From a virus (Duplodnaviria > Heunggongvirae > Uroviricota > Caudoviricetes): a stretch of 64,000 bases of DNA. How positions within the stretch are numbered: position 1 is the stretch's first letter; every line of letters starts with the position of its first letter. The stretch lies in the IMG/VR virus record IMGVR_UViG_2526164631_000023. The stretch is one strand, 5' to 3'. The notes under the pieces were generated by a model. It was not told the origin of the DNA, searched no databases, and saw only the letters and a list, made by a program, of their open reading frames with translations. Below, piece after piece: positions 1,685 through 63,974 of this stretch. The position numbers and the translations under genes were made by a program.

Positions 1685-2487
1685 TGCTTGATTCAATAGG
1701 TGAAGTTAAAGCCTTCAAAATTCTGTCAGATGCCGGTATCTCTACACCAGAATCTATAACCATAAGCCGGGCAGCGTCTGTAAAAGCCTCATCACTCGCC
1801 AGCGCCATACAGGGAATAGTTCACGCCGATAAAACCTATCCTGATTCTGTTTCGGCCTGGACTACTCAATTGCTTGGCTTTTCTGAACAGCTAAATGAGG
1901 CCAGCAAAGCGTCTTCATTACTGGCTGATTCTCTTTCCCCATACACCAAGCCATCAGAGCTGTTACAGATGAAGATTGGCTGGGAATGCTACGTAAAAGG
2001 TAACGAGCTGACCCCCATACCTGCTTTCGCCCTTGTTGAGGGGATGGGGAATGTTTCCATTCCGCAATCTCTAACGGACGCATTGACGGCGCTAAAACTT
2101 GATGCTCTGAAAACCGCCATGAACGCCATTAACGCAAAAATAGAAGCTGCTGGAAGTGCTGGTGGTGATAGCAATGGTGGACAGGGTGGTGCTGGGGGCG
2201 CTCAGGCTCCAGTCATTACTCAGGATGAAATTGAAGCTTTACGGGAAGCAGTGACAGCCGCCGAAGTTTTACTCTCCGAAATTAACTCAGCAAGTGAGAG
2301 TGTCGTAGCCCTTACAGGTCGCATTAAAACGTCAACCACTCAGGCAACCAAAGGTTTAGAGAACGCTGTCGCCATCACGTTAACTGGTTCTCTACTGGAT
2401 GATGCAGTAATGAGTCCGGCAATCAGTTTAATCATGCCACAAGGCGTTATCGATGCGCTCCAAAAGAACACCAAAAAGGAACCATAG
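1684..2487 (+). CDS. hypothetical protein (267 aa), start overlaps the PAAR-like stop (ATAATG)
   Basis: ORF track 1585..2487; in-frame ATG at 1684 coupled to the upstream stop; Ala/Ser/Gly-rich, no recognised motif. Confidence 0.4.
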   Translation: MLDSIGEVKAFKILSDAGISTPESITISRAASVKASSLASAIQGIVHADKTYPDSVSAWTTQLLGFSEQLNEASKASSLLADSLSPYTKPSELLQMKIGWECYVKGNELTPIPAFALVEGMGNVSIPQSLTDALTALKLDALKTAMNAINAKIEAAGSAGGDSNGGQGGAGGAQAPVITQDEIEALREAVTAAEVLLSEINSASESVVALTGRIKTSTTQATKGLENAVAITLTGSLLDDAVMSPAISLIMPQGVIDALQKNTKKEP

Positions 2488-2557
2488 CAACACCACTTAG
2501 GAACACAAAAGGATGCGAATTGGTACATGTTTAACACCAAAAATGAACCTGGAGAGG

Positions 2558-3016
2558 ATGGTTTTGAAAAAGATAATTTTGATTGTAATTGCGCTTTTAG
2601 CCATTTCTGGAATTTACCGAACAACGACGGCAGTTATCGAACACATCAGGTATGTCCGATCGCTTGAAGACTCAAAATCACAACTGGAAAGCACGAACAA
2701 CACGCTTTCTACCGCATTACAGTTAAGTGAGAACGCTCGCTCAGCCATGCTGACCGAAAACGAAAGAATTAAAGCACTGGAAAAGGAGTACCAGCGCAAA
2801 ACAGCAGAACTGAATGCCAACCTAATCAAACAACGAGAGGAAAGCCAGAATGAAATCACTCGCCTTGAAAATGCGTTGCGCCGTGCTGGGATTAACGATG
2901 TGCGTGTGCCTGATGACGTTATCAGGATGCAGCGGGAACGGGCAAAAGCCATCAACCAGCGTGCCAGTGAAAATTACCGTAGAAGCCACCAGCAAGCCGC
3001 AGGCAAATCTGATTGA
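2558..3016 (+). CDS. Rz-like i-spanin (N-terminal TM plus coiled coil)
   Basis: ORF 2513..3016; ATG 2558 follows GGAGAGG; MVLKKIILIVIALLAISGIY TM helix then Q/E/R-rich coiled coil. Confidence 0.5.
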   Translation: MVLKKIILIVIALLAISGIYRTTTAVIEHIRYVRSLEDSKSQLESTNNTLSTALQLSENARSAMLTENERIKALEKEYQRKTAELNANLIKQREESQNEITRLENALRRAGINDVRVPDDVIRMQRERAKAINQRASENYRRSHQQAAGKSD

Positions 3017-3182
3017 TTACTCCCCTTGTTTAGTGCCAGAAGACACGCCAGTGCTGTTAAACAAGTATCCGACATACGCTGAACAGTTATTCAGCACGAT
3101 CGACGAATGCAACCAACGAAACGCACTGAATAACCAAAGAAACAGGGAGATTTGGGAAGGGAAGGGGGATCAAGGCTCCTGA
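2850..3182 (+). CDS. Rz1-like o-spanin lipoprotein, out-of-frame overlap with Rz and extending 166 bp past the Rz stop (alternative start 2871)
   Basis: Signal peptide with lipobox LSGC (MRCAVLGLTMCVCLMTLSGCSG); Pro-rich mature part; overlapped spanin architecture. Confidence 0.45.
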   Translation: MKSLALKMRCAVLGLTMCVCLMTLSGCSGNGQKPSTSVPVKITVEATSKPQANLIDYSPCLVPEDTPVLLNKYPTYAEQLFSTIDECNQRNALNNQRNREIWEGKGDQGS

Positions 3183-3628
3183 AGCCAGATGTCCTGGCTG
3201 TCAGCTTCTTCGAAACCGTGACAGACGTTAAAGTCACTCAAACGATACTGACGCTGACGGCCCCTATTTCGCTCATGCCAATGCATATATCCACCAGCAA
3301 ATGCCAGCGGACAATCGCTATAGTCTATGTAACCAATACCATTCCCCAAACGTGCTTCGCGCGCACCAGCTTTCCAGGACAGTAGAAAAGAGTCACGATC
3401 CGCCAGCATAACAACAAAATCGTCCGGATCTCCGATACAGTGAAGAATACCTGCCTTACATAACTGCTTGAGCGCTTTTGACTGGCTCAGGATGTCTTCT
3501 CCGTAATACTGAAAACAATCATCAACAACAGCGGGATAGCCTGTCGGGGGATTCAGGCTGGTTGGTATAGCTGACGCGATCGCCAGCATTAAGCGATATT
3601 GTGTTTTTGATGGGTTGACGTGACTCAT
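3170..3628 (-). CDS. hypothetical protein (152 aa), second gene of a divergent two-gene operon
   Basis: ORF track; 16-bp gap to the upstream gene; convergent with and overlapping the Rz1 3' end. Confidence 0.4.
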   Translation of the reverse strand: MSHVNPSKTQYRLMLAIASAIPTSLNPPTGYPAVVDDCFQYYGEDILSQSKALKQLCKAGILHCIGDPDDFVVMLADRDSFLLSWKAGAREARLGNGIGYIDYSDCPLAFAGGYMHWHERNRGRQRQYRLSDFNVCHGFEEADSQDIWLQEP

Positions 3629-3644
3629 TTTGTCCCTTGTTTAC

Positions 3645-4037
3645 TCATTGTCGCCATGCATTTTTTAACTCAGGAATATCTGCCATTTCAATTAACTTGC
3701 GAAGTCCAGCACTGACTTTCCCATTGCCAACCATAGCAAGCCAATCTCTTACAGCTTTCGGCATGTAGAGCGTTGCAGTTACCGGCTCTTCAACCCTGGC
3801 AGGACATCCGCATACAGGCCATTTAATTGATTCCATAACTTCGGATGCCGGGGTGAGGGCGGGGACATTGAGTATATCTCTACCAGAAAACTGGATAACG
3901 ATCCGTTCAGCGAGCGAGAGTATCTCACTTTCGGCAAGAATTGATGCCAACTGCGCCTCAACAAGAAAGCGACTTGTTGTGTTCAGAGAGTGGCTCTTAG
4001 CGCCATTTTTATACGAAACAAAGATTCGATACGCCAT
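3645..4037 (-). CDS. hypothetical protein (130 aa)
   Basis: ORF track; TGTGTTAGAAA motif 14 bp upstream of its start codon. Confidence 0.4.
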   Translation of the reverse strand: MAYRIFVSYKNGAKSHSLNTTSRFLVEAQLASILAESEILSLAERIVIQFSGRDILNVPALTPASEVMESIKWPVCGCPARVEEPVTATLYMPKAVRDWLAMVGNGKVSAGLRKLIEMADIPELKNAWRQ

Positions 4038-4050
4038 AACTCTAATGATT

Positions 4051-4061
4051 TGTGTTAGAAA
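4051..4061 (+). promoter_or_regulatory. TGTGTTAGAAA regulatory motif copy followed by TAAAAT
   Basis: ATTTGTGTTAGAAAACTAAAATTAAATCACA between the divergent minus operon and the capsid-like gene. Confidence 0.4.
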
Positions 4062-4195
4062 ACTAAAATTAAATCACATAACAACATGAGTGTTAATATA
4101 TTTTATTTTACTAAACCTATTGACTAAATCACAAAGTAGGTATTGTTAGCCCGTCAAAAGAACCTTCACGCCGCGCCCGAATTTAGGGCTTAACC

Positions 4196-5893
4196 GTGAA
4201 TAAAAACATTCAGCCAGCTCGTGATCGCGAGCGCGAGATTATGAATCGGGCGGCAAGCGTCATGGCTATGACCGTCGATCCGACCACCGATGCAGCAGGC
4301 AACATGATTGCTGACCAGGCAGTAATGATGGAAAACCTGGATAAAGCAATCCAGAAAGTGCCTATGTTTGAAGGCGTAAATCCAGAGGTCGCTCGTCAGA
4401 TCACTGGTGGGTGGGCTATGTCTCTGCATGAGTATAAACGTCAACATGGTCATTACCCGGCAAGTGACATCCTGGCGAACGCACACATGGCTCTTGAGCG
4501 CCTGATGACTGAATGTGCCAGTGATACCCATGAAGGCACGGGTAAGGCAATGTTTGAGTCTGTCGCGCAATCAATGCGTAGCTCTGACGGCGTAATGAAA
4601 GTTGCTCAATATGCTGCTCTAATTCTGCCTGCCTCTCTGGGCGCTGCTACCAGTGATGCCTGTACTTTTGTTCCTTGTGATCGTGACGAGTCAAATATTT
4701 ATGAACTGGTCAACGTAGCAGGCACAAAATTCGGCACCTTCAACCAAGGTGACGAACTGAATATGCAGTCAGCTGGTGTTTATTCTCAAATGAAGCGCCT
4801 GTATGCCCTTTCCACTAAAGGGGATGGCAGCACCAAAACCTTCCAGTTCAACATCCAAAATTTTGAGGGACAATCCTGCCCGCTTCGCGCTGGTTATAAC
4901 AAACTGCTGATCAACCGCAAACCGTCCAAAGTTGACGACGGCGATGGCAACCTTTATTTCAATGCTAAAGACAGCAAAGGTAATGCTTTCTCAGCGACTG
5001 CCAAAGTTGCCTATGACACTGGTGTCATTGACATTACATTTACCCAGGCTCCGCCAGAAGGTACTGAAATTGCTGTTCAGGTCGAAATTAACATCGAGCG
5101 CAATCCAAGCCTGATTCCGGTGATCAACCAGGCTATGCGTAAGTACGAAGTTCGTCCGTCCCAGTACGTACTTGCTTCCGAACACACGGTAATGTCCGCA
5201 TCCGATTTAAGCCGTGAGCACGGCCTTGAATTAGCGGCACTTCAGTTCTCCGCGATGCGCAACTGGATCTCCCATGAAACCGACATCATGCGTCTGCGCA
5301 CCCTGGTATTCCATACCGTTTATGGTCGTGAATTTGATGTGGCTCTGCCGGAAGCTCAAAACTATGAGTCCTGGGTCGGTCTCCTGCGTCACGTAGTAAA
5401 CGCTCTGTCTCAAGAAATGGCAAATCGTACCCTGACAACGGGTATTCGTGGCGGCTTTGCTGGTAGTGACGCCGCGAACTTCCTGCGCTCTCTGCCTCCA
5501 CAGCACTTCCAGATCGCACCAGGTTACGTTCAGTCGCCGTATGTACAGTACATCGGCACCCTGTTTGGCACGATTCGTATTTACGAAGTGCCGCAACCTG
5601 TCTGTGAGCAATTCCAGGCACAGGGATATGACTTCGGGCTGGATGACATCTTCTTCTATGGGCGTGGCGAAGGCATCGGTAAAGCCGGTCTGATTGCTGG
5701 TGATGCAGTCCCAGCAATCCCTTACGTTCACGAAACCAATCCGTCTCTCGTTAACCGTACCACTCTCTGGGGCAGTGCCATCAACGAAGTACATCCTCGC
5801 AACGGTGAAAACTACTTCACCCGCCTGCGTCTGACTCGTGCCAAAGAAGGTGCTATCGACATGCTGACAGGCAAGGTTAACGAAAAAAAGTGA
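4196..5893 (+). CDS. large virion structural protein, possibly major head protein (P1 gp23-like size)
   Basis: 565 aa; position upstream of an Ig-like protein and tail sheath; assignment by size and context only. Confidence 0.35.
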   Translation: MNKNIQPARDREREIMNRAASVMAMTVDPTTDAAGNMIADQAVMMENLDKAIQKVPMFEGVNPEVARQITGGWAMSLHEYKRQHGHYPASDILANAHMALERLMTECASDTHEGTGKAMFESVAQSMRSSDGVMKVAQYAALILPASLGAATSDACTFVPCDRDESNIYELVNVAGTKFGTFNQGDELNMQSAGVYSQMKRLYALSTKGDGSTKTFQFNIQNFEGQSCPLRAGYNKLLINRKPSKVDDGDGNLYFNAKDSKGNAFSATAKVAYDTGVIDITFTQAPPEGTEIAVQVEINIERNPSLIPVINQAMRKYEVRPSQYVLASEHTVMSASDLSREHGLELAALQFSAMRNWISHETDIMRLRTLVFHTVYGREFDVALPEAQNYESWVGLLRHVVNALSQEMANRTLTTGIRGGFAGSDAANFLRSLPPQHFQIAPGYVQSPYVQYIGTLFGTIRIYEVPQPVCEQFQAQGYDFGLDDIFFYGRGEGIGKAGLIAGDAVPAIPYVHETNPSLVNRTTLWGSAINEVHPRNGENYFTRLRLTRAKEGAIDMLTGKVNEKK

Positions 5894-10580: not shown

Positions 10581-11288
10581 GTGAGTATTTTCAGCAGCGT
10601 TGGTAGAACGTTGACCACCGCATTGTCATTTAACACGAAATCATTCACCAGCAACCTCATTAGCGACATTCTTGATAAAGCCATATCAGGCGGCGGGGTA
10701 AGCGGGAATTACAGTAGCGATATTGCCTACGGGAAAAATATTGTTGCTGCCGCTATGCGTATCCGTTACGCCCAGGGGTGGCAGTGGACCGTTGAAGTGG
10801 ATGGCCTGAACGGCTTCGATATGTTCGTGAAGGATATCACCTACAGCAGTGGAAACATTGAGACAGAAAGCAAGGTGATCGGCAGCGTAGAATTCAGCAA
10901 GCCAACCTATGTTAGCGCCGGACCGGTCACTATGACCGTGAGGGATACCGAAGATGGCAAGATCATGGACTGGTTCAAAGAGCGTCGTTCTCGTGTAACA
11001 AATCCTGATGGAACAATAAACCTTCCTCCGGAATATCTGATGAAAATCCGTGTCTACCGGGTAACTCAGGACGGCGGAAAAGAACTGGAAGAAGAAATGC
11101 GCGTATTTCCTACACAACTTGGGGAAATCACTCGCTCACGTGATCAGGTGTCAGAGTTCTTGTCATACCCAATCACTTTCCAGAAATACACATCTGCAGG
11201 CTCAGGTGTTTCTGCTTTGGTCAACGGTGCCGCTGGCATGGCTACAAGTGCGTTAAAGGGGGCTATCAGTGGAGTGATCAAATTCTGA
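10581..11288 (+). CDS. hypothetical protein
   Basis: ORF track, 235 aa, RBS GGAGG upstream. Confidence 0.35.
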   Translation: MSIFSSVGRTLTTALSFNTKSFTSNLISDILDKAISGGGVSGNYSSDIAYGKNIVAAAMRIRYAQGWQWTVEVDGLNGFDMFVKDITYSSGNIETESKVIGSVEFSKPTYVSAGPVTMTVRDTEDGKIMDWFKERRSRVTNPDGTINLPPEYLMKIRVYRVTQDGGKELEEEMRVFPTQLGEITRSRDQVSEFLSYPITFQKYTSAGSGVSALVNGAAGMATSALKGAISGVIKF

Positions 11289-11300
11289 AATGCTTTAATT

Positions 11301-11522
11301 ATGTGTGCTGTAGGGAAAGGTTTACGTTAAATGTGTGCTGCCGGGAAACCCCATTGCTCAAGATGTGTTGTAGAGGGAATGGTAATGGCAACATGTGTGC
11401 TGGAGGGGAATTTCGCATGTAAAGAGCGTCATTTATCCCTCCAGCACACATCTGAAATAAGCAATCCTCTGAAATTCCCTCCACCACACATCCAGACATG
11501 AAACTATCCCTTCAGCACACAT
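11301..11522. repeat. incA-like RepA iteron array (about 7 copies, 4 direct and 3 inverted)
   Basis: 19-bp units ATGTGTGCTG(N)GGGAAA at about 11301, 11331, 11362, 11392 and CAGCACACAT-type inverted copies at about 11436, 11475, 11507; matches the P1 iteron consensus. Confidence 0.7.
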
Positions 11523-12386
11523 TTAATCTGTTGGTTTAAGTTTCGGATTCCGAGAGTGAACGATAATGAAGTTTTCACGACCTTGCTTTTCAATGGTGCA
11601 ATCGAGATAACCTATTGTTTTTAACTGGTCTATAGCTTTTTTTATCGTTCTGTTTTGCTCACTTACCGATGACATCAAGGCTAATCTTTCACGTATTCTG
11701 GCAAATGAAATAGGTATTGGACGTGCCGGGAGGCTTTCTATAAAGGTATATATGGCCTGGGCTGCTTCTTTTTTAGGTAAAGCGCGAAGTGCGTGTTGCT
11801 GTAGAAGCACCCGATAGTCTAGCTGGAAGATTTCCCATAACTTGGAATCAGCCTCCAGTTCAACGACATCTGTTTCAAAGTCAAAATATCCCGTTTTAAG
11901 CAGGCCAGTATTGTAGCTTCCACGAGCACTTTTCCCTCTTTTGAATGAGATGCCTTTGTTGCGTAACCGACCTAAAGAATCGTGGATCGTGTTTCTTAAT
12001 TTCCCATCAAGTCGCTTAGATGGAAATCCGCACGCCTTTGCAAATTCTTGAAAAGAAAGGCGAATTGTATTCGATGATAAGCCATACTTGCTAAATGAGT
12101 AGATTACCCCAATCCAGACTTTGAAATCAGTATCCATGTCCAAGCGAGGGCCAGTGATCTTGATGTTGTCGTAGCCTTCTGCTTGAGCTATTTCCAATTT
12201 GGAAAAAACAGATGATGCATCTATCTCGTTGTTTTCACCCTGTTTTTTAGTTGGTTTAGGGACGAAAACACCAAGCCGCATAAGTGCGACAGGTTGAACA
12301 GTATTGTTCGAATTAACTGTTAATTCTTTAGCCTTGCTTTCAATGTCAGCATAAAGAATATCAGAGATAAATGACTTATCCATCAA
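11523..12386 (-). CDS. repA: RepA replication initiator (P1 R-replicon type)
   Basis: 287 aa; MMDKSFISDILYADIESKAKELTVNSNNTVQPVALMRLGVFVPKP... recalled as near-identical to P1 RepA; flanked by iterons on both sides. Confidence 0.85.
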   Translation of the reverse strand: MMDKSFISDILYADIESKAKELTVNSNNTVQPVALMRLGVFVPKPTKKQGENNEIDASSVFSKLEIAQAEGYDNIKITGPRLDMDTDFKVWIGVIYSFSKYGLSSNTIRLSFQEFAKACGFPSKRLDGKLRNTIHDSLGRLRNKGISFKRGKSARGSYNTGLLKTGYFDFETDVVELEADSKLWEIFQLDYRVLLQQHALRALPKKEAAQAIYTFIESLPARPIPISFARIRERLALMSSVSEQNRTIKKAIDQLKTIGYLDCTIEKQGRENFIIVHSRNPKLKPTD

Positions 12387-12447
12387 TAAGTTACCGTCAT
12401 GTTGTGAATAAAGTTTACGACAGTGGATATCCGGCTTTTTTTCCCAT

Positions 12448-12652
12448 CAGCACACATCCTACATCCCGCCAGCACACATGTAAAACCCTCCAGCACACAT
12501 ATTTTTCCCGTCAGCACACATCGTTCTCCCTCCAGCACACATCTGAATAGTGGTTAAAGCCTTATGTGGCGCGGCCTGAAGAGCTACGGGATCTATTTGG
12601 TACTATATGGATCTAATCAGGATCTATATATTGGATCTATCCTGTGGATAAA
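12448..12652. promoter_or_regulatory. oriR/incC-like origin: 5 iterons, GATC cluster and DnaA box
   Basis: CAGCACACAT at about 12448, 12469, 12491, 12513, 12534; five GATC in 12588-12650; CCTGTGGATAAAA (DnaA box) at about 12641. Confidence 0.75.
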
Positions 12653-12737
12653 AAAGAAGAATTACAAAGCTCCACCCAATTTCACACACTACCTATCCTC
12701 CAACGAATAAACAGACATCTGCTTATCGGAGGAATAC

Positions 12738-20106: not shown

Positions 20107-20200
20107 TAATTCTTCCCCCAAATGCGGGGGAAGAACAACGGAAATCACAAACTGAGCATACTCTCCTTTGGTTCATTGCTTATGAAGGGGCTATGTTCGT

Positions 20201-28619: not shown

Positions 28620-28723
28620 ATGTCCCCCTTGTATGTTAAGGAGGGAGATTTTAGAAGATGTCCTGTAAGGAAATAACAAACTGACTAAGTTAGTGGCGCA
28701 TTAGATGTTATTTCTGGAGGGGT

Positions 28724-37873: not shown

Positions 37874-37999
37874 ATTAATTTGATGTTTCTAAATCGGAAT
37901 GTATGATCTGCATCATCGACTGAAGTCATCCATTGCTGAAATTTTTAGTTGATCTTCCATGTTTTCAGGCTTATATTCATGTCGTCGTAGCAAATTCTG

Positions 38000-38200
38000 C
38001 GACCGGGTTTAGCAGCCTGAATACGAATGCGGACAACCGCAGATATCCGATATTGCGGTATTTTTGTGTCCGTAAAACCACGTTACGCCCGAATTATGGT
38101 GGGGCGTGATGGGGAGGCTTCGGCCTGCTGGTTTCATTCGTGCCAGTCTGCTAACCCCGTCACGTCCTGCCACCCGTTTAGCAGCGGGTGCGCAGGTTGT
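38000..38200 (+). ncRNA. candidate c4-like antisense RNA / structured leader
   Basis: GGGTTTAGCAGC (about 38004) and CGTTTAGCAGCGGG (about 38174) are both complementary to GTCTGCTAACCCC (about 38146); hairpin CACCCG-TTTAGCAG-CGGGTG. Confidence 0.2.
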
Positions 38201-47593: not shown

Positions 47594-47729
47594 AAATAAC
47601 AGGTTGGGTAAATGCCATGCGATTTACCCTCCTTGTTGATTAAGGTCACTCTTTACTCTAAAAGCAAATCCGACCTGTTGCATATAGACCATCCTTGAGT
47701 AGTATCTCTCTTGTTTTACAAATCTAACG

Positions 47730-48224
47730 TTGTTGTTATTATTTCGCATATTTACTATCAATGAGTGTGTTAGAAAAATAGCGCGAAAGAGAAGGCGTCG
47801 CAGTGAATATTCTGAAACATCCCCACATGCCGCAGCTCTTAGAGAACTGGAGAAAAACCCAGATCTAATCAAAAGGAACCATGAGCATTACGAGCAGGTT
47901 CGCGTCCTGGACTGGTTGTATCGCAATATGCGTTATGTGTATGAGCATACTCACGCCACTCCAAACGGTGGTCTGCGAGGCATAAGGACGGCAATAAAAA
48001 TGGTGGCAGAGGGCCAAAAGAAGGTATATCCCGATCTTTCTATAGACCTTGCTTGTGGGGGATACCACGGAATGCGCATTGAGATGAAACATGGGAGAAA
48101 TCGCCTGACTCCCGAACAACTCGTCTGGATGACTCGCCTCACTGAAGCCGGTTACTACTGCTTTGAGGCGCGCAGTGCCGCTGAAGCCATAAAAGCTATC
48201 ACGGAGTATGTTTGTCTTGATTAA
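47730..48224 (+). CDS. VRR-NUC domain nuclease (true start downstream of the motif, probably non-ATG)
   Basis: EQVRVLDWL ... GYHGMRIEMKHGRNRLTPEQ fits the VRR-NUC/PD-(D/E)xK pattern; no in-frame ATG between the motif and the domain. Confidence 0.45.
   Translation: MLLLFRIFTINECVRKIARKRRRRSEYSETSPHAAALRELEKNPDLIKRNHEHYEQVRVLDWLYRNMRYVYEHTHATPNGGLRGIRTAIKMVAEGQKKVYPDLSIDLACGGYHGMRIEMKHGRNRLTPEQLVWMTRLTEAGYYCFEARSAAEAIKAITEYVCLD
47766..47776 (+). promoter_or_regulatory. TGTGTTAGAAA motif copy
   Basis: TGAGTGTGTTAGAAAAATAG. Confidence 0.4.
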
Positions 48225-48769: not shown

Positions 48770-48810
48770 TTTATTGCATCTTCCGATACCGTCATCAAAC
48801 TAATAAAATA

Positions 48811-48819
48811 TGTTAGAAA
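48811..48819 (+). promoter_or_regulatory. TGTTAGAAA motif copy
   Basis: AATATGTTAGAAAACTAATTT, about 15 bp before the RBS of the 48834 gene. Confidence 0.4.
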
Positions 48820-48833
48820 ACTAATTTAAAAAA

Positions 48834-50057
48834 GTGACGGGAACAGCAATGAGTCAACACACTGATACTTCTAATCTGGAAATTATCTCGACAGCAATTG
48901 AAACGCTGCGCACACAAATCGCTCTTATACAGAAACGGAATCCGGGTGATGACCTGTCAAAGCGACTGCACGAGAGTGTCATTGCCACTACAGATAACCT
49001 GGTGGCGGAAATCAACAAGCTGCTTGATGATGGGGCAGTTGATTACAATAAGCTGGTGGATCAGTTTGAGGAATACCAACAAGCAGTTAATGATGGCTTG
49101 ATCCGTTTTTCACAAGTCACAGGCGTATCAGCGACAGTTGAAAGCCTGGGTGATGCAGTTAATCAATTTGCCGCGAATATGCGTAATGAGATCGGCAATC
49201 TGGAAGCGCGTCTTGAACAGGCAAATACACTGCGTAAATCTGCCGAAGCCGATTTGAACCGTTACAAAAAAGACTATCCGCCAAGCCTGACAAAGCGGCT
49301 GGATGTTGCGGAGAAGGATAACCGCACGCTGAAAAGAGAGCGCCGGGAACTAAAAGAGCGTTTAACCAAGCTCAATCAGCAATGCATTGATTATCAAGGC
49401 GAAGGCGTCACACTGCGTAAAAAGTTGGCTACAGCGCAGAGCATTATCGAAACATTAAAGCGAGAGTGCTCACAGCTTGGTCACGATCTGAACCGTGCTT
49501 GTGGCATGGGACAAAGACCAGAGACATTTCCACTTATGTATGATGGAAGGGATGCCATTGCCTACATCCATGAGTATCCGCACGGCCTGGTTGCGGAAAC
49601 TGGGCAGCGTGGCGAAGCACTGCTGACGGCTAATTACCATCAACAAATCAGAACCAATCGCCTGTTAACGATGGATGTGATCCCATCGGTATGGGGAACG
49701 CCGCTTTACTATCGCCTGCCGGGCTTCGAAAAGGACTGGAATACCGACATAGACGAATGTCTCGCAGATAAAATTATGGCGTACCTGGAGACGGATTTTC
49801 CGCGCTTATATCGCCGGATTATGGACTCTAAGGATGCGCCAATCGATGAATTAAAAATGCGTCCGGAGACGCTGGAGGCAATCAAGCAGACGGAGTTTGA
49901 TACTGTATTCAGTGTGGCCTGCATTCCAAGCTGTTTCCATGAAAGCATCCCGTTCATGCAAGGAGATCGTCGTCAGGAAATCATTGACGCTTGCCGGGTA
50001 TGGGCGAACGAATGGGATAAGAAGAATGGGGGTGTAGAAGATCTTTATGGGAAATAA
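48834..50057 (+). CDS. hypothetical protein with N-terminal coiled coil
   Basis: 407 aa ORF. Confidence 0.4.
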   Translation: MTGTAMSQHTDTSNLEIISTAIETLRTQIALIQKRNPGDDLSKRLHESVIATTDNLVAEINKLLDDGAVDYNKLVDQFEEYQQAVNDGLIRFSQVTGVSATVESLGDAVNQFAANMRNEIGNLEARLEQANTLRKSAEADLNRYKKDYPPSLTKRLDVAEKDNRTLKRERRELKERLTKLNQQCIDYQGEGVTLRKKLATAQSIIETLKRECSQLGHDLNRACGMGQRPETFPLMYDGRDAIAYIHEYPHGLVAETGQRGEALLTANYHQQIRTNRLLTMDVIPSVWGTPLYYRLPGFEKDWNTDIDECLADKIMAYLETDFPRLYRRIMDSKDAPIDELKMRPETLEAIKQTEFDTVFSVACIPSCFHESIPFMQGDRRQEIIDACRVWANEWDKKNGGVEDLYGK

Positions 50058-50068
50058 TGTGTTAGAAA
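50058..50068 (+). promoter_or_regulatory. TGTGTTAGAAA motif copy followed by TAAAAT
   Basis: TAATGTGTTAGAAATCTAAAATCACA, near-identical extended element to the 4051 copy. Confidence 0.45.
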
Positions 50069-50214
50069 TCTAAAATCACAATTCGAATGTATTGATTGTG
50101 AAGATAACTTAACATAGAATTTTCCTTGCTGGTGGGCGGTACCCACGTTTCGCTTGCTGGGCTTGATAGTCACTTATTGGTTATTGTTCGCCCACCAGCA
50201 TTTAACAAATTAAA

Positions 50215-50224
50215 GTGTTAGAAA
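50215..50224 (+). promoter_or_regulatory. GTGTTAGAAA motif copy followed by TATAGT
   Basis: AAAGTGTTAGAAATGTATAGT. Confidence 0.4.
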
Positions 50225-51292
50225 TGTATAGTAATGCAAGAGCACGCTTTGGCACCGTGCAGGCCAAAGTTCAGCAGGTTTAGTGCGGAAAGTGGTTTCA
50301 GAGAGAGCACTTTGCGGAGTAAACGACAATACATGTTGAGCCACGGAAGGTCTTTTTAAGGTGTTCATTGATGATGGTCCGGCAGAGAGTAACGGTACAT
50401 GCTGCATCTAATCATCAATGCACATCTTCAACATTAAGGAGGCATAGGGATTTTTGTGGCGGTTACCTTTTGCCCTGAGTCTCCTTAATGTTGCGGTAAT
50501 GCACCTATGCGGATGTGGCCTTGCATTGTGTCTTGAAAGAATGGGGTAAGGCCGGGGATATCCCCAGGGGGAGGCACCCCCGCTGCAACGAACAGCCACA
50601 GACGGCAGTCGAGTGATGGAAACGTGTAAAGACTTTAAACCTCGTTACGGCTGGCGTGGCAAACGCGACAACCGAGACAGAGCGGTGACGGGCGGAGAGA
50701 GTGCCGCATCAAGAAAGAAGCCGACTTGTGATCCCTTTCAGCGGGCATTTGAAAGTGAATCCAGCTCAGGCAGTCGGCTTCTTTCTTGTGTGAGATGTAG
50801 CGTATTTGCCCATCTTCGGGTGGGCTTTTTTAGGGTTTTCGTCATGGTTAGCGACTTTGCGGCGGTTTAGAAACTGACCATTAAAGTAAATGCAAACGAT
50901 GATCTGATGATGGTAGCGGCCTAAGAAGCCAGACGCCACGGGGTATGAGTCGTCCCCCGTCAAAAAAATCGACCGCAGAGTGTCCCCGTCTGTGTATTAG
51001 GGAACGGGGAGGCATAACAGGCAAGGGCGCTGGTGTGATTAACCAGATGAATGAGAAGGGTCAGGTCTTTCTGGTCAGCGCCCTTACCTGTTGCGTCCTT
51101 CCCGCGTAACAGCCATTGCTTAATGGCATCCTGGGAGAACTTCTTGTAACGGGTATATCCCGTCATGCTGAAGGCGCTAATCACGCTGGAAGCCAGGGTT
51201 GTGCATCCCCTGTTACCGAATTGCAGCCAGGGCGCGGTGCGCCGAAAAGCATACGGAGGTGGAAGCCCTCGCCGGAGACGTACCCGGCAAGT

Positions 51293-51369
51293 GATGGTGT
51301 AGCTCAGTAGGATAGAGCAGCAGCCTTCTAAGCTGTCGGTAGGTGGTTCGAATCCACCCACCATCGCCA
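51293..51369 (+). tRNA. tRNA-Arg (anticodon TCT)
   Basis: Manual cloverleaf: acceptor GATGGTG/CACCATC, D-stem GCTC/GAGC, anticodon loop CTTCTAA, T-arm GGTGG-TTCGAAT-CCACC, CCA end. Confidence 0.7.
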
Positions 51370-51374
51370 ATTTA

Positions 51375-51461
51375 GGGGAGTTAGTCCGTAGGGGTAGCGG
51401 GGTAGACTGTAAATCTACTGTCATTGCGACTCGGGTGGTTCGACTCCATCACTCCCCACCA
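51375..51461 (+). tRNA. tRNA-Tyr (anticodon GTA), long variable arm
   Basis: Acceptor GGGGAGT/ACTCCCC, anticodon arm GTAGA-CTGTAAA-TCTAC, T-loop TTCGACT, CCA end. Confidence 0.65.
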
Positions 51462-51465
51462 AATT

Positions 51466-51541
51466 GCCGGTTTAGCTCAGTTGGTAGAGCAGTCGCTTTG
51501 TAAGCGAATGGTCAGCGGTTCGATCCCGTTAACCGGCACCA
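51466..51541 (+). tRNA. tRNA-Thr (anticodon TGT)
   Basis: GCCGGTTTAGCTCAGTTGGTAGAGC...TTTGTAA...GGTTCGATCC...AACCGGCACCA; close to E. coli tRNA-Thr as recalled. Confidence 0.7.
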
Positions 51542-51995
51542 ACACAACAGGTAAGAGCATTTGTAGAGTTCGACTCTCTACCGTGGGCTTTTTCCCGCGA
51601 TGCGAGCCATAAATGCTCTTACCGTTGTGATGAAGTGCAGCTCTTTGAAGCAACCAGAAGATAAGCATCTGGCTTCACAACATAAACCGCAGGAACGACC
51701 AATAAACGGTAGTCCGTATGGAGAACACCCCGTTGAGGAAGAGGTCTGGCCGGAACCGTAACCGGCACTACAACGTTGAGAACACTGGCGTAACGGGGTC
51801 ATATCCCAATCTACGAATAAATGTTGCGTTGCAGCGTGACAACCAGTGTTCTCAACATTGTGGTGAATGCGCAGGCTGATGCGCGAAAGACATTGCAGCT
51901 ATTGCGGAAAAGAGCTGTTCGGCGGGGCAATTAAACGCCCGTGAGAGTCTGAAATAACCGCAAGCCGGAGATCAGCACCGGTCGCCACAATAACG

Positions 51996-52082
51996 GGAGA
52001 GTAGGGAGCATGGTGCTCAAGCGGTCTTGAAAACCGTCCCATTGCGCAAGCGATGATGGTTCGATTCCATTACTCTCCGCCA
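51996..52082 (+). tRNA. tRNA-Ser (anticodon TGA), long variable arm
   Basis: Acceptor GGAGAGT/ACTCTCC, anticodon arm CGGTCTTGAAAACCG, T-loop TTCGATT, CCA end. Confidence 0.65.
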
Positions 52083-52373
52083 GTGCAACGTTAAGAGTAT
52101 TTGGCTAATTAAGCGAATGCCGGAAGCAGAACCGGATCACCAAATGCGTACAGGCGTCATCGCCGCCCAGCCAGCCAAGTGCTCTTACCATTGCGGTGAA
52201 TGCGGCTAAGCGCACGCGGAACAGTTAAAACAGTAAAGGTGGTCTTTTTACTGGCGTAACGAGAATCCATAAGTGATCCGGCGTTAATTGTTAACTGGTT
52301 AACGTCACCGGGAGGCACCCGGCACCGCAACCTAACAGCAATGGCGTTTTGTCTTAAAAGGTGGCTGCAAGTG

Positions 52374-52502
52374 ATGGATTTTTGGGCGTTTGCCGATAAA
52401 AACCCGGAGTGGACATTATTGTTTCTGCTGGTGGTTGCATACGGGGTAGAGCAAGCGGCAAAAGCCTTACGCGGTTCTGGCAAAAAGCGTAAGCGTAATT
52501 AA
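52374..52502 (+). CDS. small hydrophobic peptide (42 aa) inside the tRNA island
   Basis: AGGTGG RBS 10 nt before ATG; MDFWAFADKNPEWTLLFLLVVAYGVEQAAKALRGSGKKRKRN (one TM plus basic tail). Confidence 0.25.
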   Translation: MDFWAFADKNPEWTLLFLLVVAYGVEQAAKALRGSGKKRKRN

Positions 52503-52511
52503 CAGTAATCT

Positions 52512-52587
52512 GGCCCTTTAGCTCAGTGGTTAGAGCGGGCGACTCATAATCGCACGGTCACCGGTTCAAGTCCGGTAGGGGCCACCA
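52512..52587 (+). tRNA. tRNA with anticodon CAT, most like tRNA-Ile2 (lysidine type); elongator Met not excluded
   Basis: GGCCCTTTAGCTCAGTGGTTAGAGCGGGCGACTCATAATCGC...GGTTCAAGTCC...GGGGCCACCA, close to E. coli ileX-type tRNA as recalled. Confidence 0.65.

Positions 52588-61260: not shown

Positions 61261-63974
<2,714 letters not shown>

Follow-up and report, generated by a model that had tools for sequence, protein, structure and literature searches.

A candidate C1-controlled early operon in a conserved cargo slot beside the major capsid gene of D6-type plasmid prophages

The 64,000-nt stretch of viral DNA analysed here (IMG/VR record IMGVR_UViG_2526164631_000023; hereafter, the window) is, as judged from its sequence, a close variant of Escherichia phage D6 (MF356679), a plasmid prophage of the P1 family. 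Between a pair of spanin-like genes and the major capsid gene, it carries two short genes on the minus strand, orf52 and orf53, which a preliminary description had regarded as a moron-like operon carrying accessory cargo under independent control. Our analysis points to another reading, which we consider probable: the two genes would form an early operon controlled by the immunity repressor C1 and located in a conserved cargo slot, with orf52 as its conserved member and orf53 as its portable one. D6-like plasmid prophages are also known from clinically relevant Salmonella and Shigella lineages, and the regulation of D6-like elements has so far been inferred almost wholly from P1.

Central to this reading is a 17-nt asymmetric motif in the intergenic region 4038-4195, between orf52 and the divergently transcribed capsid gene (Table 1). 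With the copy at 4050-4066 itself as the query pattern, nine copies with three or fewer mismatches were counted in the window against 0.3 expected, and none of 100 shuffles reached nine. The nine other copies in the window differ from it at one to five of the 17 positions, a repeat search revealed a further copy at 50213, and the rest of D6 contains seven more. Copies precede the c1 start codon by 13 nt, lpa by about 80 bp, and both the c4 target sites and the C4 antisense RNA (Rfam: 37971-38177) by about 100 nt, the last of these being the place of Op51 in P1. The motif also occurs between cre and the orf117-dut operon (window 59866). Those in the rest of D6 include copies upstream of ref and of hrdC-dmt, at the latter of which the P1 record has Odmt/Op68. 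This distribution is similar to that of the C1 regulon of P1, where copies are dispersed at c1, lpa, immI, ref, and dmt. The C1 protein of P1 has 22 binding sites, scattered asymmetric operators of 17 bp, and governs repL and lpa (PMC8546580). The P1 operator, ATTGCTCTAATAAATTT, and the D6-type motif, TTAGTTTTCTAACACAA, are different in sequence but have a TCTAA core in common. The dispersed motif is thus most likely the operator of the D6-type C1 repressor.

The placement of the motif relative to orf52 resembles that of the C1-controlled early operons of P1 (Pdmt/Odmt, ref, lpa, and c4-icd-ant), which likewise have a single 17-nt asymmetric operator at a sigma-70 promoter. The -10 element of the candidate promoter P(orf52) ends one base before the operator, and transcription is predicted to begin within the operator, the classical layout for repression. 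The copy at 4050-4066 is conserved in three D6 lineages and in an Enterobacter relative. The three lineages also keep the entire order of elements: a -35 element TT(A/C)ACA, 17 nt, a -10 element TTTAAT, one base, the operator, 12-13 nt, and ATG. The same promoter-operator design is found in the upstream region of lpa. A motif copy before the first start codon had already been recognised in the preliminary description, although the distance to the ATG at 4037 is 12-13 nt rather than the 14 given there.

A distant relative with a different motif allowed a comparison of these sites. The Pantoea plasmid NZ_CP134741 (94 kb) does not use the D6 motif, and [AT]3-TCTAA[GA]GA occurs in it exactly four times; three of these sites precede c1, lpa, and the orf52 homologue, and the fourth separates cre from the orf117-like gene. 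The 13-mer common to these four regions was reproduced in none of 400 shuffles. Since the operator differs with the element yet recurs at the orf52 homologue, the orf52 promoter appears to be a conserved member of the regulon, whose operator co-varies with the element.

We also considered the motif as a late, Lpa-dependent promoter element and rejected this assignment, as it is inverted relative to lpa and orf117 and is present at c1 and c4. Moreover, a different box, AAAT(A/C)ACAAA(G/C)T in plus orientation, marks four late operons: upfC-spanins (1355-1366), capsid (4126-4137), R-S-U tail fibre (20142-20153), and lydAB (28671-28682). By analogy with the -22 box of P1 late promoters, this box is probably the D6-type late (Lpa-dependent) promoter element, and the P1 record has LP23 at the place equivalent to the capsid element. 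The capsid gene therefore has a late-type box of its own, separate from the operator, and the 17-mer would serve orf52 and not the capsid gene.

These observations suggest a simple scheme. RNA polymerase would use a sigma-70 promoter (TTAACA, 17 nt, TTTAAT) followed by one 17-nt asymmetric operator. In the lysogen, C1 bound to the operator would block RNA polymerase and keep orf52-orf53 off; expression would start upon induction or infection, at the same time as that of lpa and the cre-proximal early operon. The head gene of this divergent transcription unit is orf52 throughout the clade; orf53 would be an accessory second gene. The expected behaviour, silent in the lysogen and on early after derepression, would be that of the P1 C1 regulon. 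The cre-proximal early operon of D6 (orf117, orf116/MarR-like, dut, and Tad2-like) has the same operator in the same sense orientation (59866), although its genes are different from orf52 and orf53.

Several points weigh against this scheme. P(orf52) is a candidate for the promoter in use, but its -10 element, TTTAAT, does not have the critical A at position 2, for which reason a consensus scan did not report this promoter. The scan reported instead an alternative sigma-70-like promoter further upstream of orf52 (Table 1); if that promoter were used, the operator would fall in the transcribed leader. The promoter matches of the scan were no more numerous than expected by chance for the region. 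A look through the accessible D6 literature found no confirmation that C1 binds the motif. As for the genes themselves, the structure model of orf53 is unusable, with a predicted local distance difference test score (pLDDT) of 45, and a weak winged-helix hint in its N-terminus was not confirmed (BLASTP E = 0.011, hhalign probability 5.5%). Finally, pmgM and pmgS, described in the D6 record as morphogenetic or scaffolding genes, are immediately preceded by operator-like copies at 47711-47781 and 48808-48824 (plus strand). A Pantoea protein at the map position corresponding to pmgS, likened to PmgS by position only, is annotated with an RNA polymerase alpha C-terminal domain; pmgM and pmgS may be early regulatory rather than morphogenetic genes.

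The two ORFs (open reading frames) of 130 and 152 amino acids that the preliminary description had placed on the minus strand against plus-strand flanks are real genes under purifying selection. The ratio of nonsynonymous to synonymous substitution rates (dN/dS), computed between three D6 lineages, is 0.02-0.04 for orf53 and 0.07-0.17 for orf52 in two of the three lineage pairs, the synonymous rate (dS) of orf52 being saturated in the third. A Shine-Dalgarno sequence for orf53, AAGGGA, lies in the 16-nt spacer after the orf52 stop codon, as would suit an operon. Both proteins are named 'hypothetical protein' in the D6 record as well as by the Prokaryotic Genome Annotation Pipeline in RefSeq plasmids. 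Searches of Pfam, NCBIfam, PADLOC, and PDB sequences with both proteins, their C-terminal fragments, and profiles returned no informative match, bearing out the earlier statement that the proteins have no recognisable domains. In the PHROG search, each protein matched one PHROG of unknown function and nothing else, and literature look-ups by protein accession returned nothing for either protein. The 3' end of orf53 overlaps the outer spanin-like ORF convergently by 13 nt, as the preliminary description had noted for Rz1. No intrinsic terminator was predicted on either strand at this junction, no structured RNA was detected at the 3' end of orf53 (z = -0.18), and the Rfam scan gave no family in the orf52-orf53 region. 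Early and late transcripts probably meet at the junction and extend antisense into one another.

The conservation of orf52 is what anchors the slot. A profile search found 42 clusters of orf52 homologues, all from Enterobacterales plus one from Acinetobacter, none of which has a Pfam domain or an informative name. Among clusters with a longest contig above 25 kb, most are on contigs of 55-96 kb; two clusters are also found on contigs above 200 kb, and many other clusters are known from short fragments only; the family appears to be confined to P1-like plasmid prophages. We examined the contexts in three D6 lineages (from E. coli and Salmonella) and in Citrobacter, Pantoea, Enterobacter, Xenorhabdus, Hafnia, Yersinia, and Acinetobacter. 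In every one of them, the gene that comes first in the direction leading away from the major capsid gene, on the opposite strand, is the orf52 homologue (23-81% identity). No homologue of orf52 was found in P1 or P7, and P1 has none of orf53 either. The upfA gene of P1, which has the same length (130 amino acids) and occupies the same slot, was considered as a homologue and rejected for want of any similarity. D6 orf117 as a paralogue of orf52 likewise failed for lack of similarity, and the gene that precedes orf53's homologue in Vibrio phage douglas was also rejected as an orf52 homologue.

The AlphaFold2 model of orf52 (pLDDT 74) comprises a small alpha/beta N-terminal domain and a helical C-terminal segment (residues 85-130), the latter being the most conserved part of the protein. 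Inspected by eye, the C-terminus reads as a strand (TATLYMP), a helix, a G-x-G-(K/S)-x-S turn, and a second helix, a pattern like that of ribbon-helix-helix or helix-turn-helix proteins. On account of this conserved pattern, orf52 would most likely be a small nucleic-acid-binding or regulatory protein. The pattern is alike to that of the Arc/Mnt/CopG-type ribbon-helix-helix proteins, but in the monomer model the strand at residues 86-92 is absent and there are three helices (94-103, 108-118, and 122-129), of which the third is extra; orf52 is not classed as a member of that group. Profile, sequence, and whole-model fold searches gave no match to a ribbon-helix-helix family or to a solved structure of this type, and the resemblance serves as a lead only. 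Any specific biochemical role for orf52 or orf53 is at present a doubtful proposition.

The gene content after orf52 varies among relatives. In most elements examined, the slot lies between the major capsid gene and the spanin-upfB-upfC block. Only the D6 lineage has orf53 there; Hafnia and Xenorhabdus have a RelE/HTH pair, and other relatives have NinX or strings of small ORFs; in Pantoea and Enterobacter, no annotated gene precedes the convergent genes on the far side of the slot. orf52 occurs without orf53 in the slots of Pantoea, Enterobacter, Hafnia, Yersinia, and Xenorhabdus and in the E. coli plasmid pPEC399_3, which has kept orf52 and does not contain orf53. At the same map position, P1 carries upfA, oriR-repA-parAB, and parS, and upfA is unrelated to orf52. 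The slot of pPEC399_3 (L029) contains at 2236-3449 an extra icd-like gene and an ORF6N antirepressor cassette in place of orf53; this is a third immI-like module that has landed in the cargo slot.

The second gene, orf53, has a different history. Between D6 lineages, the orf53 protein is 95-98% identical, compared with 87-90% for the capsid protein and 62-81% for orf52. Part of this high identity is due to mosaic exchange, because the dS of orf53 is 0.22 in a lineage pair in which that of the neighbouring genes is about 2; its dN/dS nevertheless stays low despite the exchange. An exhaustive HMMER scan of 1.84 billion representative proteins with the orf53 profile identified 23 relatives, none of them annotated. 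A 1,256-residue repetitive match (P0040) in this search was judged spurious. Seven residues are invariant in the family alignment: Y41, G88, G95, G113, and C136-H137-G138. The family is common to P1-like plasmid prophages of Enterobacterales and Vibrio and to a Vibrio phage.

Outside the D6 slot, the homologues of orf53 are 27-34% identical to it, and their upstream partners are unrelated to orf52 or missing. In Pantoea, cre and an orf117-like gene immediately precede the homologue, and a MarR-like gene and dut come next. In Citrobacter, it lies directly after cre and a small gene at the orf117 position, and the genes beyond are hypothetical. A homologue on a Vibrio plasmid is located beside PadR and Ref, and that of Vibrio phage douglas 12A4 belongs to the early region, with RdgC and an oligoribonuclease nearby. 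Tens of kilobases separate the homologues of orf52 and orf53 in Citrobacter, Pantoea, and Acinetobacter. The operon that hosts orf53 homologues in other elements is, in D6, the cre-proximal operon with dut and the Tad2-like gene. We tried D6 orf116 of that operon as a paralogue of orf53 and rejected it (hhalign probability 5.5%). Taken with its absence from pPEC399_3, these positions let orf53 be read as portable early accessory cargo, found in other elements in the company of genes for DNA metabolism and counter-defence, which would most likely act on DNA metabolism, host take-over, or counter-defence.

According to a 2025 preprint, 93% of D6-like elements carry Tad2. The Tad2-like (anti-Thoeris) gene of the window (61261-61797, plus strand) retains only the first 24 of the 73 positions of the Pfam domain. 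Homology to D6 stops at about 61740 and fragments of an IS21-type istB gene follow (61807-62588, minus strand); the Tad2-like gene therefore appears to be disrupted by an insertion sequence in the window variant.

Among other explanations, the moron proposed in the preliminary description deserves the most attention, although we regard it as unlikely. The pair would then be a prophage-expressed cassette for exclusion, defence, or lysogenic conversion, with a promoter of its own that is active in an otherwise silent prophage. The opposite orientation and the separate promoter region would be consistent with such a cassette, as would the toxin-antitoxin pairs and the icd-antirepressor cassette in the same slot of relatives. 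In addition, orf53 is polymorphic in presence and position, as a moron, present in some close relatives and absent from others, would be. Like morons and other phage cargo hotspots, the slot is bounded by conserved genes and variable in content, and orf53 moves between loci. However, orf52 does not follow this pattern, being conserved and syntenic across the clade and found at the same place in all relatives examined except P1. Furthermore, an operator-like motif adjoins the promoter in all lineages, and in the Pantoea relative it has changed along with those at c1 and lpa. With the motif as the operator of the immunity repressor, the operon is predicted to be off in the lysogen and on early in lytic growth, which is the opposite of a classical moron. 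The GC content of the pair (0.47-0.49) does not deviate from that of the flanks (0.47-0.50). While an own promoter is plausible, no terminator is predicted for the unit, whose 3' end overlaps the spanin gene. The PADLOC defence models did not match either protein even at E <= 10, and the orf53 homologues elsewhere are located in early lytic operons. From the earlier proposal, we retain the opposite-strand unit with independent control, the variable slot, and the portability of orf53, but neither the moron-like operon nor an accessory status of orf52, and the pair is not an obligate one.

A type II toxin-antitoxin or abortive-infection pair, with orf52 as the DNA-binding antitoxin and orf53 as the toxin, is in our estimate very unlikely. 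Two small genes only 16 nt apart, with the smaller one upstream, would suit such a pair, and the C-terminus of orf52 superficially resembles the DNA-binding modules of antitoxins. However, the two genes are not co-inherited and each is found without the other, neither protein matches a toxin or antitoxin family in Pfam, NCBIfam, or PADLOC, and some relatives have a complete RelE/HTH pair beside orf52. The least probable explanation, which we regard as scarcely credible, is that the genes serve virion assembly or another late function, for example as a capsid chaperone: orf52 always adjoins the major capsid gene, but it is transcribed divergently under an operator-type motif and not under the late-type box of the four late operons, P1 and P7 make virions of the same kind without it, and PHROG and fold searches detected no similarity to structural proteins. 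The preliminary description had named as contrary to its proposal the case of homologues that are conserved assembly factors at the same position; orf52 was indeed found conserved at its position in every non-P1 relative examined, down to 23% identity, but nothing suggests a role in assembly.

Table 1. Coordinates of the orf52-orf53 operon, its candidate control elements, and the neighbouring genes in the window.
Feature	Position	Strand	Remarks
orf52, first gene	3645..4037	-	130 amino acids; D6 orf52
orf53, second gene	3170..3628	-	152 amino acids; D6 orf53
Shine-Dalgarno sequence for orf53	3633..3638	-	AAGGGA
17-nt asymmetric motif	4050..4066		TTGTGTTAGAAAACTAA on the plus strand, TTAGTTTTCTAACACAA in orf52 sense; candidate D6-type C1 operator
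Candidate early promoter P(orf52)	4068..4096	-	-35 TTAACA 4096..4091, 17-nt spacer, -10 TTTAAT 4073..4068
Alternative sigma-70-like promoter	4105..4134	-	TTGTGA, 18 nt, TAAAAT; from consensus scan
Late-promoter-like element of the capsid gene	4120..4146	+	TTGACTAAATCACAAAGTAGGTATTGT; separate from the operator
Convergent overlap of orf53 and outer spanin-like ORF (3' ends)	3170..3182		13 nt
Inner spanin-like ORF	2513-3016	+	PHROG 'Rz-like spanin', E = 4.7e-16
Outer spanin-like ORF	2850-3182	+	LSGC lipobox; PHROG Rz-like, E = 2.8e-5; overlaps inner spanin-like ORF
Major capsid gene	4196-5893	+	

The two spanin-like ORFs encode an inner-membrane protein with an N-terminal transmembrane helix and an overlapping, out-of-frame lipobox lipoprotein, as in Rz/Rz1-type spanins. 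The outer spanin-like ORF also matched Pfam O_Spanin_T7 at E = 0.012, a match that does not reach the curated cut-off. Genes upfC and upfB lie on the plus strand on the same side of the slot as the spanin pair, and the P1 counterparts at the spanin position are mlp and ppfA. The signal peptide and the LSGC lipobox of the outer spanin-like ORF require a start at 2850 or at an internal methionine near 2871. The D6 record starts orf54 at the equivalent of about 2961, by which the lipobox is lost, and the start of D6 orf54 is probably mis-annotated. On the other side of the slot, a GCCC-N7-GGGC hairpin (4160-4195, plus strand) lies directly 5' of the GTG start of the capsid gene, over the likely ribosome-binding site. 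In the Citrobacter, Pantoea, and Enterobacter relatives, the stem is conserved but not the loop, and the hairpin may be an element of translational control or mRNA stability.

The region around the slot (window 2400-4800) is 99.1% identical to D6, and the rest of the window is about 98% identical over most of its length. Stretches that do not align in this way include an insertion near 61.7 kb, the plasmid replication region (10796-12682), and portions of the tail-fibre and tRNA regions. Within the replication region, about eight iteron-like repeats (TCCC.CCAGCACACAT) are located at 11433-12547. Because this region differs from D6 and holds such repeats, the window variant would be of another replicon or incompatibility type than D6. 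In the tRNA region, the operator copies at 50057 and 50213 head a 1.2-kb stretch (50057-51292, plus strand) without an annotated D6 gene, followed by four tRNA genes that Rfam places on the plus strand (51293-52584). The tRNAs of the D6 record would map to the minus strand of the window. This discrepancy points to a strand error in the D6 record, and the tRNA genes may form a transcription unit under C1 control. Among 5,426 complete E. coli genomes, 101 (about 2%) carry the orf52-orf53 region, every time as a single plasmid-borne copy, on plasmids of roughly 76-97 kb. In PLSDB, about 140 plasmids carry each of the two genes.

To the biology of D6-type prophages, the analysis adds a candidate operator consensus and regulon map of this immunity type and a conserved cargo slot beside the capsid gene, anchored by the clade-wide orf52. 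It also adds orf53, a portable early gene under very strong constraint and a reasonable candidate for anti-defence or host take-over screens. Two more specific readings can be offered, both speculative. In one, the very small and extremely constrained orf53 family would represent a new family of early effectors for counter-defence or host take-over. In the other, orf52 would be a new regulator of the D6-type lysis-lysogeny circuit, because it is always under candidate C1 control and always divergent from the capsid late promoter, and the D6 record has no annotated coi or lxc. Its part could be that of a switch like Coi or Cro, or it could time the expression of the capsid gene. Our results also correct the notion that a gene on the opposite strand means a moron: here, the orientation would mirror early versus late timing and not lysogenic expression. 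The description best supported by the evidence is that of an operator-controlled early operon of a P1-type phage, built from two uncharacterised protein families.

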